Part shown: piece after piece, positions 19,350 through 53,410 of the stretch
Position numbering within the stretch: position 1 is the stretch's first letter
How the letters are laid out: every line of letters begins with the position of its first letter
Assembly (NCBI RefSeq): GCF_017348835.2
Contig: NZ_CP071375.1
DNA: 64,000 nt
DNA from: Escherichia coli
GTDB taxonomy: Bacteria; Pseudomonadota; Gammaproteobacteria; Enterobacterales; Enterobacteriaceae
Strand: one strand, 5' to 3'
Program-made: the position numbers and the translations under genes
Notes under the pieces: generated by a model
Seen by the model: the letters and a program-made list of their open reading frames with translations, nothing else
What the model was told of the DNA's origin: nothing
Database searches by the model: none

Positions 19350-19757
<408 letters not shown>

Positions 19758-19776
19758 TTAATTTGCATAGTGGCAG

Positions 19777-19809
<33 letters not shown>

Positions 19810-19861
19810 TGACCTCTGTACTTATAACAGTTCTTATAACAACAAGTAAGGTTATTGCGCT

Positions 19862-20260
19862 ATGCAAACACAAATTAAAGTTCGTGGATATCATCTTGAT
19901 GTTTACCAGCACGTTAACAACGCCCGCTACCTTGAGTTTCTCGAAGAAGCCCGCTGGGATGGGCTGGAAAACAGCGACAGTTTTCAGTGGATGACCGCCC
20001 ATAACATCGCTTTCGTGGTGGTGAATATCAATATTAACTATCGCCGTCCGGCAGTATTGAGCGACCTGTTAACTATCACCAGTCAGTTGCAGCAATTAAA
20101 TGGAAAGAGCGGCATTTTAAGTCAGGTCATCACTCTTGAGCCGGAAGGGCAGGTGGTAGCCGACGCGCTCATTACGTTTGTTTGTATCGATCTCAAAACG
20201 CAGAAGGCTTTAGCGCTGGAAGGGGAGCTGCGCGAAAAGCTGGAGCAGATGGTTAAGTAA
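19862..20260 (+). CDS. fadM: Long-chain acyl-CoA thioesterase III FadM (hotdog fold), 132 aa
   Basis: ORF-track full length; MQTQIKVRGYHLDVYQHVNNARYLEFLEEARW. Confidence 0.92.
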   Translation: MQTQIKVRGYHLDVYQHVNNARYLEFLEEARWDGLENSDSFQWMTAHNIAFVVVNININYRRPAVLSDLLTITSQLQQLNGKSGILSQVITLEPEGQVVADALITFVCIDLKTQKALALEGELREKLEQMVK

Positions 20261-20264
20261 ACGT

Positions 20265-20310
20265 TTTGTTGTGCCGGATGCTCATGCCGCATCCGGCAAC
20301 ATCCCGAGTA
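20265..20310. repeat. Single REP element between fadM and queC
   Basis: GCCGGATGCTCATGCCGCATCCGGCAAC palindromic REP-like motif. Confidence 0.65.
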
Positions 20311-20311
20311 A

Positions 20312-21007
20312 TTACTTCAACCCGGTCTTCTGCTTCATCGCTGCCATCACCGTCGGTTTATCGGCCAGATAATGATTCAAACCGTTGGCGCGTAAATTAC
20401 ATGCCGCACATTGACCGCAACCGTCGCCTTTAATGCCGTTATAGCAGGTCAGCGTTTCGTTACGGACTAAATCCAGCTTGCCGTAATAATCTGCCAGCGC
20501 CCAGGTTTCCGCTTTATCAATCCACATCAGCGGCGTTTCAAAACGAATCTCTTTCGCCATGCCCAGACTAACGGCATGGTTTAGTGCTTTCACAAATTCA
20601 TCGCGGCAATCCGGGTAACCGGAGAAGTCTGTTTCGCAGACCCCGGTAATCACCGCTTCTGCTTTCACCTGATACGCGTAAATCGCCGCCAGCGTCAGAA
20701 ACAAAATATTACGCCCAGGGACAAACGTATTAGGGATGCCATCGGCTTCAGGTTCATAATCTGGCACTGGAATGCTGTCACGCGTCAGACTGCTGACTGC
20801 CAGCTCATTAAGCAGGGTGACATCCAGCACCTTATGCGCGCGTGCACCCAGTTTCAGCGCCAGATCGCGCGCGACGTCGATCTCTGCGCGATGGCGCTGA
20901 CCGTAATCGAACGTCACGCAATGGACTTCATCATAGTGTTGCAATGCCTGCACCAGACAGGTTGTAGAGTCCTGGCCCCCACTGAATACAACGACAGCAC
21001 GTTTCAT
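20312..21007 (-). CDS. queC: 7-cyano-7-deazaguanine synthase QueC, 231 aa
   Basis: ORF-track full length; N-terminal PP-loop SGGQDS; C-terminal Zn-binding cysteines (CGQCAAC). Confidence 0.95.
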
Positions 21008-21070
21008 AAATCATCCTGCTAAATCGATAAAACGTTATGGTAACCCCTGTGGTTAACCCGGACCAGCTCT

Positions 21071-22771
21071 TCATTGCGACGGTGCGGGTAGCCAGGCTTC
21101 GGTAAATTCAAACCAGCCGCGCGGTGTCAGTCGCACACCGTTTACTCCGGGCGGCGCGCTAATGCGATAGTGATAGTTGAACAGTGGTGTCAGCGTTGCG
21201 TCTGCCATTAACTGGCTAAACACCGTTTTCAGGGCATTAAATCGGTTTTCCTCATAAGGCATTACTTGCACGGCATCCAGCGTTGATTGCAGATGTGCGT
21301 ATGTACTGGCAGTAAAAACATGCGGCCACAGCGGATCGCAGCGCAGCCACTGTTCAAGGGTATATTCCGGTGCTTCGCCAATTAATCTGTCGCCCATCAT
21401 GAGGTCTGCTTGATCCAGTGGCGTGGCACCGTCCCAGTTTTTCGCGTTATGAAAAACAATCTTTAGCTCGCAACCTTCTTCTGCCAGCGTCGTTCGTAGC
21501 TGTTCTGCCATGGCGTGAAGTTCCACGGGTAGGTGATAAACCAGCGTCAGTGTTTCAGGTAGTTTGACTTCCTCCGGAACTTGCCATTGTGGAATGGTCC
21601 AGCCTGGAAGCAATGCATTACTGGCGGTGATCAGGTTTTCTCCGACTTCTAACGTTTGTAGTAAGCCGGATTGATGAATAATGGTGATCACTTTTCGAGC
21701 CTGCCAGAGCGTCAGTCGGGGGCTTTTGCGCAACGTTAAATAGCAAAAACCTAAACTGATGCCGCTACTGACCTGACTGACCCGTTGCAGCTCCTCCGGT
21801 TTGCCGATGGTGATTTGCACGGGATGCCGACAACTGGTTCCCAAATCTTTTTCGAAAAGCGGCGGAGTTATCCAGTACTCAACCGCTTTAAGCAGCGGAT
21901 GACGTAAATGGTAATAATCATGGCTTTCCAGGCGCACCAGCTCCGCTGTGAATTGTGTTAAGCGAAAAGGACCCGTGCCGATCAGTGGGAATTGCGGATG
22001 CGCCAGATGGCTGCAATAGCTCGCCAGCCGGTGCGCAAGCCAGTAATCAGGGCGATGTAAAAAGAAGGTCAGACACTGCGGATGGGTGACTTCAATACGC
22101 TTCACGCTAATAAATAATTGATCCAGTGCTGGCAGTTGTAACAGCATCAATAATCGCTGGTGTAAGTGTGAGGCTTTTACTGCATCGCCGTTATGCCAGT
22201 GTAGGGTTGAACGAAGATAAAAGTCCCAGCGTAACCCGTCAGTAGAGGTTTCCCAGTGATGTGCTAAATCGCCAATCGGGCGCTGGGTATTATTATCGAA
22301 GCGGGTCAGGCCGGAAAATATCTGTCCGGCGAGATGCTGCTCAGCACGGCCGGGCAAAAAGCCCGGTTGTAGCGGTTCGAGCGGGCGATAGTAGGGAATA
22401 CGCAACGTGGGTGTATCGTTTTGCCATTGTCCGCCCATAAACGGCTGTAACAGAGTGCGCAGCTCACCTGGGGCCAGTTGCGCCAGCTCCAGCACATCTT
22501 GCTGCTTTCCGGTTTCCAGTGCCTTTTCCATCATCGCATTGCGTAGCGATTCTGGCGTGACCAGAAAGCGTAATTGTCCGCGCTTTCCGCGTCCTGACTG
22601 CGCCTGCCACTCCAGCCATCCCGCCTCTTGTGCCTGACGCAACAGCGTACGAACATGGCGTTCGCTGCAAAAACAGCGTTCGGCCAGTTCGCTGACGGTG
22701 ACGGTTTGCGGCTTTCCGGCGGAAGGTTGCCACAGACGTTGATACTGGTTAAGACGGTTGAGCAGTCGCAT
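21071..22771 (-). CDS. ybaE: Uncharacterised YbaE: N-terminal SgrR-like HTH fused to periplasmic solute-binding-like domain, 566 aa
   Basis: ORF-track 21071..22786 minus; start at MRLLNRLNQYQRLWQ; family assignment from recognition of the K-12 protein. Confidence 0.85.
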   Translation of the reverse strand: MRLLNRLNQYQRLWQPSAGKPQTVTVSELAERCFCSERHVRTLLRQAQEAGWLEWQAQSGRGKRGQLRFLVTPESLRNAMMEKALETGKQQDVLELAQLAPGELRTLLQPFMGGQWQNDTPTLRIPYYRPLEPLQPGFLPGRAEQHLAGQIFSGLTRFDNNTQRPIGDLAHHWETSTDGLRWDFYLRSTLHWHNGDAVKASHLHQRLLMLLQLPALDQLFISVKRIEVTHPQCLTFFLHRPDYWLAHRLASYCSHLAHPQFPLIGTGPFRLTQFTAELVRLESHDYYHLRHPLLKAVEYWITPPLFEKDLGTSCRHPVQITIGKPEELQRVSQVSSGISLGFCYLTLRKSPRLTLWQARKVITIIHQSGLLQTLEVGENLITASNALLPGWTIPQWQVPEEVKLPETLTLVYHLPVELHAMAEQLRTTLAEEGCELKIVFHNAKNWDGATPLDQADLMMGDRLIGEAPEYTLEQWLRCDPLWPHVFTASTYAHLQSTLDAVQVMPYEENRFNALKTVFSQLMADATLTPLFNYHYRISAPPGVNGVRLTPRGWFEFTEAWLPAPSQ

Positions 22772-36713: not shown

Positions 36714-39866
<3,153 letters not shown>

Positions 39867-39885: not shown

Positions 39886-41079
39886 TTAAGACTTGGACTG
39901 TTCAGGCTGAGCACCGCTTGCGGCTTGCTGGTTATTATCAGCGGTAACTTCTTGTGCTTTTACCTGGACACCAGGACGCACTTTCTGCAGCCCACTTATT
40001 ACTACGCGATCGCCTGCTTTCAGACCTTCTGTCACCAGCCACTTATCTCCAATAGCCTGGCTTGCAACGATCGGACGGGTTTCCACTTTGTCATCCGCGC
40101 CAACTACCAGTACGGTGGCATCGCCACGCGGCGTACGGGTTACGCCCTGTTGCGGGACTAAAATAGCGTTTGGATTAAGCCCTTCTTCCAGACGTGCGCG
40201 CACGAACATACCCGGCAGCAGAGTGTGATCCGGGTTCGGGAAGATAGCGCGTAGGGTGATAGACCCAGTGGTCTGATCAACGGTAACGTCAGAGAATTCC
40301 AGCGTACCGTCCTGCGGGAACTTAATGCCGTCACTGGTGATCAGCGACACTTTGGCTTTGCCGTTCTCTTGTTTCAGCGTGCCATTCGCCAGTTCCTGTT
40401 TCAGGCGCAGGAAGTCGTTGCTGGACTGGGTCACATCAACGTAGATCGGATCAAGTTGCTGCACGGTTGCCAGCGCAGTCGCCTGACCGTTCTGTACCAA
40501 TGCGCCTTCCGTCACGTTCGACTTACCAATGCGACCGCTAATCGGAGAGGTGACTTTGGTGTAAGCCAGATTGATCCGCGCAGTTTCAACAGCAGCTTTC
40601 GCCGCAGTTACCGCAGCATTCGCCTGTTGCGCATCAGCCAGAGCCTGATCGTACTCTTGCTTACTGATGTACTGAGTACCGAGCAGTTTCTGATAACGAT
40701 TCACCGTCAATTGCGCGATATTGGCTGCAGCCTGGGCTTTCGCCAGATCACCTTTCGCACTGTCGTATGTCGCCTGATAGGTCGCAGGATCAATCTGATA
40801 GAGAGAGACACCTGCTTCGATGTCGCTACCTTCTTTGAAATTACGCTTCAGGATAATCCCGCTAACTTGAGGACGAACTTCTGCGATCCGGTAGGCACTG
40901 GTGCGACCCGGAAGCTCGGTTGTGATCTGCAGAGGTTCAGTTTTGACTGTTACTACGCCAACGGCGGGCATCTGCTGGCCACCTTGTTGGGCCTGTTTGT
41001 CGTCACATCCTGTTAGGGCTAAGCTGCCTGAGAGCATCAGAACGACCGCCAGAGGCGTAAACCCTCTGTTTTTGTTCAT
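39886..41079 (-). CDS. acrA: RND efflux periplasmic adaptor (membrane fusion lipoprotein) AcrA, 397 aa
   Basis: ORF-track 39886..41115 minus; start at MNKNRGFTPLAVVLMLSGSLALTGC (lipobox). Confidence 0.95.
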   Translation of the reverse strand: MNKNRGFTPLAVVLMLSGSLALTGCDDKQAQQGGQQMPAVGVVTVKTEPLQITTELPGRTSAYRIAEVRPQVSGIILKRNFKEGSDIEAGVSLYQIDPATYQATYDSAKGDLAKAQAAANIAQLTVNRYQKLLGTQYISKQEYDQALADAQQANAAVTAAKAAVETARINLAYTKVTSPISGRIGKSNVTEGALVQNGQATALATVQQLDPIYVDVTQSSNDFLRLKQELANGTLKQENGKAKVSLITSDGIKFPQDGTLEFSDVTVDQTTGSITLRAIFPNPDHTLLPGMFVRARLEEGLNPNAILVPQQGVTRTPRGDATVLVVGADDKVETRPIVASQAIGDKWLVTEGLKAGDRVVISGLQKVRPGVQVKAQEVTADNNQQAASGAQPEQSKS

Positions 41080-41168
41080 ATGTAAACCTCGAGTGTCCGA
41101 TTTCAAATTGGTCAATGGTCAAAAGTTAATAAACCCATTGCTGCGTTTATATTATCGTCGTGCTATGG

Positions 41169-41192
41169 TACATACATTCACAAATGTATGTA
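41169..41192. promoter_or_regulatory. AcrR operator: 24-bp palindrome TACATACATT-CACA-AATGTATGTA in the acrR-acrA divergent promoter region
   Basis: 10-bp perfect inverted arms read in sequence 29 bp upstream of acrR ATG; matches the known AcrR operator. Confidence 0.85.
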
Positions 41193-41220
41193 AATCTAAC
41201 GCCTGTAAATTCACGAACAT

Positions 41221-41868
41221 ATGGCACGAAAAACCAAACAAGAAGCGCAAGAAACGCGCCAACACATCCTCGATGTGGCTCTACGTCTTTTCTCACAGCA
41301 GGGGGTATCATCCACCTCGCTGGGTGAGATTGCAAAAGCAGCTGGCGTTACGCGCGGTGCAATCTACTGGCATTTTAAAGACAAGTCGGATTTGTTCAGT
41401 GAGATCTGGGAACTGTCAGAATCCAATATTGGTGAACTAGAGCTTGAGTATCAGGCAAAATTCCCTGGCGATCCACTCTCAGTATTAAGAGAGATATTAA
41501 TTCATGTTCTTGAATCCACGGTGACAGAAGAACGGCGTCGATTATTGATGGAGATTATATTCCACAAATGCGAATTTGTCGGAGAAATGGCTGTTGTGCA
41601 ACAGGCACAACGTAATCTCTGTCTGGAAAGTTATGACCGTATAGAACAAACGTTAAAACATTGTATTGAAGCGAAAATGTTGCCTGCGGATTTAATGACG
41701 CGTCGGGCAGCAATTATTATGCGCGGCTATATTTCCGGCCTGATGGAAAACTGGCTCTTTGCCCCGCAATCTTTTGATCTTAAAAAAGAAGCCCGCGATT
41801 ACGTCGCCATCTTACTGGAGATGTATCTCCTGTGCCCCACGCTTCGTAACCCTGCCACTAACGAATAA
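41221..41868 (+). CDS. acrR: TetR-family repressor AcrR, 215 aa
   Basis: ORF-track full length; N-terminal TetR HTH ([37 protein letters not shown]). Confidence 0.96.
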
Positions 41869-41995: not shown

Positions 41996-44900
41996 ATGAC
42001 TATGTTCCAGTATTACAAACGATCACGGCATTTTGTTTTTTCAGCATTTATTGCTTTTGTTTTTGTCTTGTTATGCCAGAACACGGCGTTTGCGCGGGCG
42101 TCATCGAATGGTGATCTGCCGACAAAAGCGGACCTGCAGGCGCAACTTGACTCATTAAATAAACAAAAAGATCTTTCTGCTCAGGACAAACTGGTGCAGC
42201 AGGATCTGACAGATACATTAGCCACCCTCGATAAAATTGATCGCGTAAAAGAAGAGACCGTTCAGCTACGGCAAAAAGTCGCTGAAGCGCCGGAAAAAAT
42301 GCGCCAGGCGACGGCGGCGTTAACAGCACTTAGCGATGTCGATAACGACGAAGAAACGCGCAAAATTCTGAGCACGCTTTCGTTGCGCCAGCTGGAAACT
42401 CGCGTTGCCCAGGCGCTGGACGATTTGCAAAACGCACAAAACGATCTGGCGTCTTATAACAGCCAGCTGGTTTCGTTACAGACGCAGCCCGAACGCGTGC
42501 AAAATGCGATGTATAACGCTTCGCAGCAGCTGCAACAAATTCGCAGTCGTCTGGATGGGACTGATGTCGGCGAGACTGCCTTACGTCCCAGCCAGAAAGT
42601 GTTAATGCAGGCTCAGCAGGCGTTGCTGAATGCGGAGATTGACCAGCAGCGTAAAAGCCTGGAAGGGAATACCGTCTTGCAGGATACCTTGCAAAAGCAA
42701 CGTGATTACGTGACGGCGAACAGCGCCCGTCTGGAGCACCAGTTACAACTGTTGCAAGAAGCGGTAAACAGCAAGCGCCTGACTTTAACCGAAAAAACGG
42801 CGCAGGAAGCCGTCTCCCCGGATGAAGCCGCGCGTATTCAGGCTAATCCGCTGGTGAAGCAGGAACTGGAAATTAACCAGCAGTTAAGTCAGCGTCTGAT
42901 TACCGCGACTGAAAACGGTAATCAGTTGATGCAGCAAAACATTAAAGTCAAAAACTGGCTGGAGCGGGCGCTGCAATCGGAACGCAATATTAAAGAGCAG
43001 ATTGCCGTCCTGAAGGGCAGCCTGCTGTTGTCTCGTATCCTTTACCAGCAACAACAAACGCTGCCCTCGGCGGATGAACTGGAAAACATGACCAACCGCA
43101 TCGCGGATTTGCGTCTCGAACAGTTTGAAGTTAACCAGCAGCGTGATGCACTCTTCCAGAGCGATGCGTTCGTCAACAAACTGGAAGAAGGTCACACCAA
43201 CGAAGTCAACAGCGAAGTTCACGATGCGTTATTACAAGTGGTTGATATGCGTCGCGAATTGCTGGATCAACTCAACAAACAGTTGGGTAACCAGCTGATG
43301 ATGGCCATTAACCTGCAAATCAACCAGCAGCAGTTAATGAGTGTGTCGAAAAACCTGAAATCCATCCTGACTCAGCAAATCTTTTGGGTGAACAGTAACC
43401 GTCCAATGGACTGGGACTGGATCAAAGCGTTCCCGCAAAGCCTGAAAGATGAATTTAAGTCGATGAAAATTACGGTGAACTGGGAAAAAGCCTGGCCCGC
43501 CGTTTTTATCGCTTTCCTCGCTGGTTTGCCGCTGCTGTTGATTGCCGGGCTGATCCACTGGCGTCTGGGGTGGCTGAAAGCGTATCAACAAAAACTGGCT
43601 TCCGCTGTGGGTTCCCTGCGTAACGATAGCCAGCTCAACACACCAAAAGCGATCCTTATCGACCTGATCCGCGCGCTGCCGGTGTGCCTGATTATTCTCG
43701 CGGTTGGCCTGATTCTGTTGACCATGCAGCTCAACATTAGCGAACTGCTATGGTCGTTCAGCAAAAAACTGGCGATTTTCTGGCTGGTGTTTGGCCTGTG
43801 CTGGAAGGTACTGGAGAAAAACGGCGTTGCCGTGCGTCACTTCGGCATGCCGGAGCAGCAGACCAGCCACTGGCGTCGGCAAATTGTCCGCATCAGTCTC
43901 GCGTTGCTGCCTATCCATTTCTGGTCTGTGGTGGCAGAACTTTCCCCGCTGCATCTGATGGATGATGTGCTGGGGCAGGCGATGATTTTCTTCAACCTGC
44001 TGCTGATTGCCTTCCTGGTGTGGCCGATGTGCCGCGAAAGCTGGCGTGATAAAGAGTCGCACACCATGCGACTGGTCACCATTACCGTGCTGTCGATTAT
44101 CCCGATTGCGTTGATGGTGCTGACTGCCACGGGTTATTTCTACACCACGCTGCGCCTCTCCGGGCGTTGGATTGAAACCGTTTATTTGGTGATCATCTGG
44201 AACCTGCTGTACCAGACGGTATTGCGCGGCTTAAGCGTAGCGGCGCGGCGTATCGCCTGGCGTCGTGCGCTGGCGCGTCGGCAGAATCTGGTGAAAGAGG
44301 GCGCAGAAGGTGCCGAACCGCCGGAAGAACCCACCATTGCACTGGAACAGGTTAACCAGCAGACGCTGCGTATTACCATGTTGCTGATGTTTGCGCTGTT
44401 CGGTGTCATGTTCTGGGCAATTTGGTCCGATTTGATCACCGTGTTCAGCTATCTCGACAGCATCACGCTCTGGCATTACAACGGCACTGAAGCTGGCGCT
44501 GCGGTGGTGAAAAACGTCACCATGGGCAGTCTGTTGTTTGCGATTATCGCCTCAATGGTGGCCTGGGCGTTGATTCGCAACCTGCCTGGTTTGCTGGAAG
44601 TGCTGGTGCTCTCGCGACTGAATATGCGCCAGGGCGCGTCGTATGCCATTACTACCATCCTTAACTACATCATTATTGCTGTTGGTGCGATGACGGTGTT
44701 CGGATCGCTGGGCGTCTCTTGGGATAAACTCCAGTGGCTGGCAGCAGCATTATCCGTAGGTCTTGGTTTTGGTTTACAAGAAATTTTCGGTAACTTCGTC
44801 TCCGGTTTGATCATTCTATTCGAACGTCCGGTGCGTATTGGCGATACGGTAACCATTGGTAGCTTCTCGGGGACGGTAAGTAAGATCCGTATTCGTGCGA

Positions 44901-45358
44901 CAACGATTACCGATTTCGATCGCAAAGAAGTGATCATCCCGAACAAAGCGTTTGTTACCGAGCGTCTGATCAACTGGTCGTTGACTGACACTACTACGCG
45001 TCTGGTGATCCGTCTCGGCGTGGCCTATGGCTCCGATCTGGAAAAAGTGCGTAAAGTGTTACTGAAGGCGGCGACTGAGCACCCAAGGGTGATGCACGAA
45101 CCAATGCCGGAAGTCTTCTTTACGGCGTTTGGTGCCAGCACGTTGGATCATGAGCTGCGTCTGTATGTGCGTGAACTGCGTGACCGTAGTCGTACTGTCG
45201 ATGAGCTGAACCGTACTATCGATCAGCTGTGCCGTGAAAACGACATCAACATTGCCTTTAACCAGCTTGAAGTGCATCTGCACAACGAGAAGGGCGATGA
45301 GGTGACGGAAGTAAAACGCGACTACAAAGGCGACGATCCGACGCCAGCGGTAGGGTAA
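41996..45358 (+). CDS. mscK: Potassium-dependent mechanosensitive channel MscK (KefA), 1120 aa
   Basis: ORF-track full length; signal peptide, long coiled-coil periplasmic region, C-terminal MscS-like domain. Confidence 0.95.
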   Translation: MTMFQYYKRSRHFVFSAFIAFVFVLLCQNTAFARASSNGDLPTKADLQAQLDSLNKQKDLSAQDKLVQQDLTDTLATLDKIDRVKEETVQLRQKVAEAPEKMRQATAALTALSDVDNDEETRKILSTLSLRQLETRVAQALDDLQNAQNDLASYNSQLVSLQTQPERVQNAMYNASQQLQQIRSRLDGTDVGETALRPSQKVLMQAQQALLNAEIDQQRKSLEGNTVLQDTLQKQRDYVTANSARLEHQLQLLQEAVNSKRLTLTEKTAQEAVSPDEAARIQANPLVKQELEINQQLSQRLITATENGNQLMQQNIKVKNWLERALQSERNIKEQIAVLKGSLLLSRILYQQQQTLPSADELENMTNRIADLRLEQFEVNQQRDALFQSDAFVNKLEEGHTNEVNSEVHDALLQVVDMRRELLDQLNKQLGNQLMMAINLQINQQQLMSVSKNLKSILTQQIFWVNSNRPMDWDWIKAFPQSLKDEFKSMKITVNWEKAWPAVFIAFLAGLPLLLIAGLIHWRLGWLKAYQQKLASAVGSLRNDSQLNTPKAILIDLIRALPVCLIILAVGLILLTMQLNISELLWSFSKKLAIFWLVFGLCWKVLEKNGVAVRHFGMPEQQTSHWRRQIVRISLALLPIHFWSVVAELSPLHLMDDVLGQAMIFFNLLLIAFLVWPMCRESWRDKESHTMRLVTITVLSIIPIALMVLTATGYFYTTLRLSGRWIETVYLVIIWNLLYQTVLRGLSVAARRIAWRRALARRQNLVKEGAEGAEPPEEPTIALEQVNQQTLRITMLLMFALFGVMFWAIWSDLITVFSYLDSITLWHYNGTEAGAAVVKNVTMGSLLFAIIASMVAWALIRNLPGLLEVLVLSRLNMRQGASYAITTILNYIIIAVGAMTVFGSLGVSWDKLQWLAAALSVGLGFGLQEIFGNFVSGLIILFERPVRIGDTVTIGSFSGTVSKIRIRATTITDFDRKEVIIPNKAFVTERLINWSLTDTTTRLVIRLGVAYGSDLEKVRKVLLKAATEHPRVMHEPMPEVFFTAFGASTLDHELRLYVRELRDRSRTVDELNRTIDQLCRENDINIAFNQLEVHLHNEKGDEVTEVKRDYKGDDPTPAVG

Positions 45359-53279: not shown

Positions 53280-53410
53280 TCAAGCCGCAGCAGATCTGCT
53301 TTCGGGCAGGTCTGCTCATCCACCTCAGGCAATACCTCTCACAGCAATTAGTTCTTCTTCCTCACTTTTCCGCTACAATTATCAACAAGTTGAATCGATA
53401 AGAGGCGGTA

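Follow-up and report, generated by a model that had tools for sequence, protein, structure and literature searches.

The acrR–acrA region of this chromosome raises a simple question: is the short palindrome lying between the two genes the operator through which the repressor AcrR controls the drug-efflux pump genes acrAB, and if so, are the operator and its repressor in a form that would leave this control unimpaired? The window, that is, the whole 64,000-nucleotide stretch of DNA analysed, is a segment of the E. coli chromosome. Over its full length it aligns to positions 444,552–508,643 of K-12 MG1655, in two collinear blocks at ~98.6% identity. All 57 K-12 proteins encoded across it are full length and free of gaps, and no large insertions relative to K-12 were found within the 64 kb. 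The features relevant to the question are collected in Table 1.

Table 1. Features of the acrRAB control region in the window, and related loci from the genome scans (window coordinates unless a locus identifier is given)
Feature	Position	Strand	Description
acrB, RND permease, 1049 aa	36714..39863	-	Co-transcribed with acrA; no stops; one difference from K-12
acrA, periplasmic adaptor of the AcrAB-TolC pump, 397 aa	39886..41079	-	0 amino-acid differences from K-12 b0463
Weak promoter-like sites, candidates for acrR	41126..41155	+	TTAATA, 16–18 nt, TATATT or TATTAT; consensus scan, 9/12
Candidate acrAB sigma-70 promoter	41165..41194	-	Consensus scan, 9/12 matches
24-bp AcrR operator	41169..41192	.	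TACATACATT (41169–41178), CACA (41179–41182), AATGTATGTA (41183–41192)
mar/sox/rob box (MarA, SoxS, Rob site), intact	41221..41239	+	Consensus AYNGCACNNWNNRYYAAAYN
acrR, TetR-family repressor, 215 aa, wild type	41221..41868	+	Translation, comparison with K-12
mscK	41996..45358	+	Annotation transferred from K-12
Escherichia loci with a CATA spacer	L055 7930–7953, L076 7303–7326, L004 2598–2621		Compared with window 41179–41182
Aeromonas/Betaproteobacteria loci with exact arms	L002, L009, L011, L015–L017, L019, L029, L045		
Aeromonas/Betaproteobacteria loci with exact arms, continued	L059, L066, L075, L082, L093, L095, L102, L105		

A direct read of the window at 41169–41192 gave TACATACATTCACAAATGTATGTA on the + strand, and a repeat finder resolved the element into two arms of 10 nt each, 100% complementary and 4 nt apart. 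It lies between acrA and acrR, separated from the downstream acrR ATG by 28 nt. Even when up to three mismatches are allowed, the 24-mer has a single occurrence in the 64 kb window, and 100 dinucleotide-preserving shuffles of the window yielded 0 matches at the same tolerance. A search with the 10-bp half-site, allowing at most one mismatch, revealed no further AcrR half-sites in the window beyond the two arms themselves.

The characterised AcrR-binding site of the acrAB promoter, described by Su et al. in 2007 and quoted in later reports (PMC10597343, PMC9769551), is the 24-bp sequence 5'-TACATACATTTGTGAATGTATGTA. The + strand of the window at the palindrome is its exact reverse complement, with 0 mismatches, and one of these reports also prints the reverse complement, 5'-TACATACATTCACAAATGTATGTA, which agrees with the window letter for letter (PMC10597343). 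In the same sources the site comprises two inverted repeats of 10 bp with 4 bp between them, and a dimer of dimers is proposed to occupy it (PMC10597343, PMC9769551). A preliminary description of this DNA had stated that perfect 10-bp arms flank CACA at this place, that the element is an AcrR operator and that it is intact. The sequence read and the repeat finder reproduced the first statement exactly, the match to the published site bore out the second, and a search of the arms for mismatches to that site, which found none, confirmed the third.

Identity with K-12 extends well beyond the operator. Alignment of the entire 141-bp gap between acrA and acrR with K-12 MG1655 485,620–485,760 showed 100% identity, with 0 differences over its length, and the 24-mer and the AcrR protein are likewise identical, making this the same element as the operator of the K-12 acrRAB locus. 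The published binding data were obtained with K-12 material: in electrophoretic mobility shift assays (EMSAs), purified AcrR shifted a 179-bp fragment of the K-12 acrAB promoter, with both DNA and protein originating from K-12 (BW25113), and ethidium bromide, putrescine and cadaverine prevented AcrR–DNA binding (PMC10597343, PMC9769551). In a ΔacrR strain, an acrABp-lacZ fusion was strongly induced (PMC10597343, PMC9769551).

Alternatively, the palindrome could form an RNA hairpin in the acrR leader that influences mRNA stability or translation rather than serve as a protein-binding DNA site. The + strand RNA spanning 41160–41225 folds with the 10-bp stem at −11.7 kcal/mol; however, this energy is no better than that of shuffled sequence (z = −0.78, with 39 of 200 shuffles folding at least as well), and we rejected the hairpin on this ground. 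The published EMSAs, in which AcrR bound double-stranded DNA that contains the site, also speak against it, leaving the RNA explanation very improbable.

We assessed how the operator is conserved within Escherichia and beyond. A 901-bp query around the operator found a match in 5423 of 5426 complete E. coli genomes, with acrR and acrA annotated beneath it, and the 60 bp centred on the operator were identical in 5276 of those 5423 genomes. One inspected 60-bp variant, that of E. coli B, carries a G-to-A change at the equivalent of 41201, outside the operator. Two further kinds of variation were observed. The spacer reads CATA (TATG on the other strand) in two E. coli genomes and in E. albertii, where the window and K-12 have CACA (TGTG). 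In another genome (NZ_CP148461.1, E. coli Z1323CEC0008), the 60-bp match ends at base 49 and an IS481-family transposase is annotated under the match, suggesting that an insertion interrupts the stretch from the operator to the start codon of acrR, at a point equivalent to about 41199/41200; this insertion is absent from the window.

Species-representative genomes, 100,044 in all, were scanned for both arms with a free spacer, which gave at least 120 loci. In 114 of the 120 loci listed, the start of an AcrR homologue is no more than 150 bp from the palindrome, and most of these have an AcrA homologue on the opposite side; exact arms were the selection criterion of the scan, and these counts consequently show linkage to acrR and acrA and do not measure how often the arms mutate. 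In the Enterobacterales loci listed, which come from many species besides E. coli, the arms stand at a fixed offset of 28–30 bp from acrR, and an AcrA homologue followed by AcrB lies some 90 bp to their other side. The spacer is freer: at least 20 variants occur among the loci listed, including CACA (36 loci), CATA (28) and CGCG (13), and species other than E. coli carry CATA, CGCG, CGCA and others. Two loci depart from the usual arrangement, one retaining the AcrA homologue with no AcrR hit (L108) and the other having both genes, with acrR 344 bp from the palindrome (L097).

Four of the 120 listed loci (L013, L052, L071 and L080, with the hosts Thomasclavelia, Pseudidiomarina, Parendozoicomonas and Clostridium neonatale) are adjoined by open reading frames (ORFs) without resemblance to AcrR or AcrA, and in L013 the site falls within a long ORF unlike either protein; these are probably chance or unrelated sites. 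They illustrate that 20 specified bases can occasionally arise with no acrR or acrA neighbour, as they would if the palindrome in the window were itself a functionless, AT-rich inverted repeat produced by chance. Against such an origin stand the 0 matches in 100 shuffles, the association with an AcrR homologue in 114 of the 120 listed loci, the near-invariance of the site in E. coli and the published binding data. The linkage and the binding data refute it for practical purposes, and the probability that we would still assign to it is negligible.

Taken together, the exact match to the characterised site and protein, the location in the genome and the conservation identify the palindrome, with near certainty, as the operator of the TetR-family repressor AcrR within the divergent acrR/acrAB control region, the repressor itself being encoded 28 bp to the right.

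Outside the Enterobacterales, both Aeromonas and Betaproteobacteria have exact arms, placed 24–150 bp upstream of genes for AcrR-like repressors and beside RND pump operons; the Betaproteobacteria are represented among the loci listed by Acidovorax, Comamonas, Ottowia, Polaromonas, Silvimonas and one Oxalobacteraceae genome. In the listed Aeromonas and betaproteobacterial loci, AcrR identity is 35–45% overall, distributed unevenly along the chain: 62% in the DNA-binding residues 8–65 versus 27% in residues 66–200 of the ligand domain. It is conceivable, but in our view unlikely, that the arms TACATACATT and AATGTATGTA and the helix-turn-helix (HTH) of AcrR constitute an unusually deeply frozen operator/HTH pair reaching beyond the Enterobacterales that has so far gone uncatalogued. 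If true, such a pair could offer a means of predicting AcrR-type regulons in two classes of proteobacteria.

The repressor gene is as well preserved as its operator. The acrR ORF has no internal stop, and residues 1–215 of its product are 100% identical to the crystallised E. coli AcrR (PDB 2QOP/3BCG, E = 1.6e-141); the gene is annotated under the name acrR in matching E. coli genomes. Relative to K-12 (b0464, NP_414997), the protein has 0 changes and the gene 4 nucleotide substitutions, all of them synonymous. The closest solved homologue from outside the enterobacteria is TtgR (E = 2e-43 to 2e-44). Residue 45, at which the literature links mutation to resistance, is the wild-type arginine (R45), and the literature also records one clinical isolate with an IS1-like insertion at +147/148 of acrR. 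The comparison with K-12 revealed no R45C substitution, frameshift, stop or insertion sequence in acrR of the window. The preliminary description had held acrR to be full length at 215 aa and without disruption, which its translation and 100% identity to K-12 AcrR substantiate, and a check for resistance-associated changes found none in either acrR or the operator.

The pump genes acrA and acrB are also close to K-12. The acrA start codon, as in K-12, is the ATG at 41079, and a longer, mechanically called ORF extending to 41115 begins at TTG. The sole amino-acid difference from K-12 in all of acrRAB is D1039G in the C-terminal tail of AcrB (codon at 36744–36746), which is probably a neutral polymorphism. 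Operator and repressor show no difference from K-12 against a background of ~1.4% nucleotide strain polymorphism in the surrounding genes.

Differences from K-12 were also noted elsewhere in the window. A single break in collinearity occurs between adk and hemH, where 53 bp (53281–53333) stand opposite 157 bp in K-12 (497,821–497,977); the difference in length probably corresponds to a small intergenic repeat element. In the stretch 19386–22771, which contains ybaV, queC and ybaE, protein identity to K-12 falls to 93.5% for YbaV, 95.1% for YbaE and 97.4% for QueC, compared with 99–100% for most other genes, and this suggests a recombined segment.

How AcrR would act from this position is suggested by the promoter-like signals around it. 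The candidate acrAB promoter consists of a −35 hexamer TTTACA (41194–41189), an 18-nt spacer and a −10 hexamer TACCAT (41170–41165), and the operator covers the whole of this spacer and extends into each hexamer. Among the 90 Enterobacterales loci listed, both hexamers are at least 80–90% conserved; the stretch from the operator to the acrR start codon is just 40–60% conserved in the Enterobacterales loci listed. Because the −35/−10 pair brackets the operator, the hexamers are conserved and the stretch toward acrR is much less so, occlusion of the acrAB promoter by bound AcrR is the best reading of these sequence patterns and the likely mode of repression. For acrR, given the weak + strand sites at 41126–41155, the operator would sit just downstream of the transcription start site, an arrangement with which autoregulation by AcrR would fit.

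The activator site of the region is also intact. The marbox is a perfect match to its consensus and the sole one in the 64 kb, where 0.07 would be expected; it lies upstream of the candidate acrAB promoter and takes in the start of acrR, from the initiation codon onward. This agrees with the published location of the acrAB marbox, within the initial 21 nt of acrR coding sequence (PMC11642870). Because of this overlap, acrR deletions that take out the marbox also abolish activation.

Additional sequence elements lie on the acrA side of the operator. An imperfect 9-bp inverted repeat, ATAAACCCA/TGCGTTTAT (41129–41137 and 41142–41150), is located in the presumed acrA leader. As a conserved palindrome it was rejected, its outer arms varying without compensation across the 88 Enterobacterales loci listed; the core AACCCATTGCTGCG (41132–41145) is the sole part of the repeat that is nearly invariant in those loci. 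Further conserved blocks follow toward acrA, namely CAATGG and CCTCGAGTGTCCGATTTCAA, the latter with a Shine–Dalgarno sequence and a TCGGA motif. The acrAB promoter of Salmonella has been described with a predicted start site, a leader structure and CsrA sites (PMC5727465), and the conserved blocks on the acrA side may correspond to that leader structure and those CsrA sites.

Combining these elements with the published data, the local circuit can be proposed as follows. The helix-turn-helix domains of AcrR dimers would contact each 10-bp arm, with the literature proposal of a dimer of dimers applied to the 24-bp site. AcrR seated on the operator would block RNA polymerase and lower the transcription of acrAB; the transcription of acrR would probably be lowered as well, because the operator has the likely acrR promoter on one side and the start codon of acrR on the other. 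Ethidium bromide, putrescine or cadaverine would free the DNA from AcrR, and MarA, SoxS or Rob would activate acrAB from the marbox at 41221–41239.

A second repressor may use the same palindrome. The paralogous TetR-family protein EnvR (AcrS), encoded beside acrEF, would repress acrAB from here, and the palindrome could be its operator too, or even mainly, a possibility to which we give an even chance. In E. coli, EnvR is reported to bind 30 bp of the acrAB promoter, and in Salmonella its binding is reported to be abolished when the 24-bp AcrR palindrome is mutated (PMC9780535). This would supplement the assignment to AcrR, not replace it: envR lies outside the window, AcrR is the adjacent and divergently encoded regulator, and deletion of acrR alone strongly derepresses acrABp-lacZ.

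With AcrR retained as the local repressor, the remaining statement of the preliminary description, that the intact site implies normal local repression of acrAB, can be accepted as a reasonable inference for the local circuit. It does not extend further, for acrAB expression also depends on MarA, SoxS and Rob, whose genes lie outside the window, as do marR, soxR and envR. Lon, which the literature describes as involved in the degradation of MarA and SoxS, is encoded in the window and is 100% identical to its K-12 counterpart.

The locus conforms to the general organisation of its regulator family. Type I regulators of the TetR family are encoded divergently from their target, with an intergenic region of less than 200 bp (PMC3511530, PMC6790063). 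Here, acrR and acrAB point away from each other, their start codons are 141 bp apart, and the palindromic operator sits in the DNA that they share. Unlike in the simple TetR/tetA model, an activator site, the acrAB marbox, reaches into the coding sequence of the repressor. QacR IR1 and the TtgR operators are long palindromes bound by two dimers, a likeness to the dimer of dimers proposed for AcrR on its 24 bp, but the operator sequences and ligands differ. The nearest parallel outside E. coli is the AcrR/EnvR palindrome of Salmonella acrAB, likewise 24 bp long and in the same position, from which TetR-family repressors lower acrAB expression (PMC9780535).

For resistance screening, these results amount to a negative finding: the strain is free of the known kinds of change in acrR or its operator by which AcrAB-TolC becomes derepressed. 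The source of any efflux-mediated resistance that it may show would have to be regulators beyond the window, such as marR, soxR or rob, or other mechanisms. Overall, the operator is the textbook AcrR site in its wild-type form, already known and adding no new biology within the window, and since the operator, the repressor, the marbox, acrA and the intergenic region are all wild type, the local circuit should act as it does in K-12.
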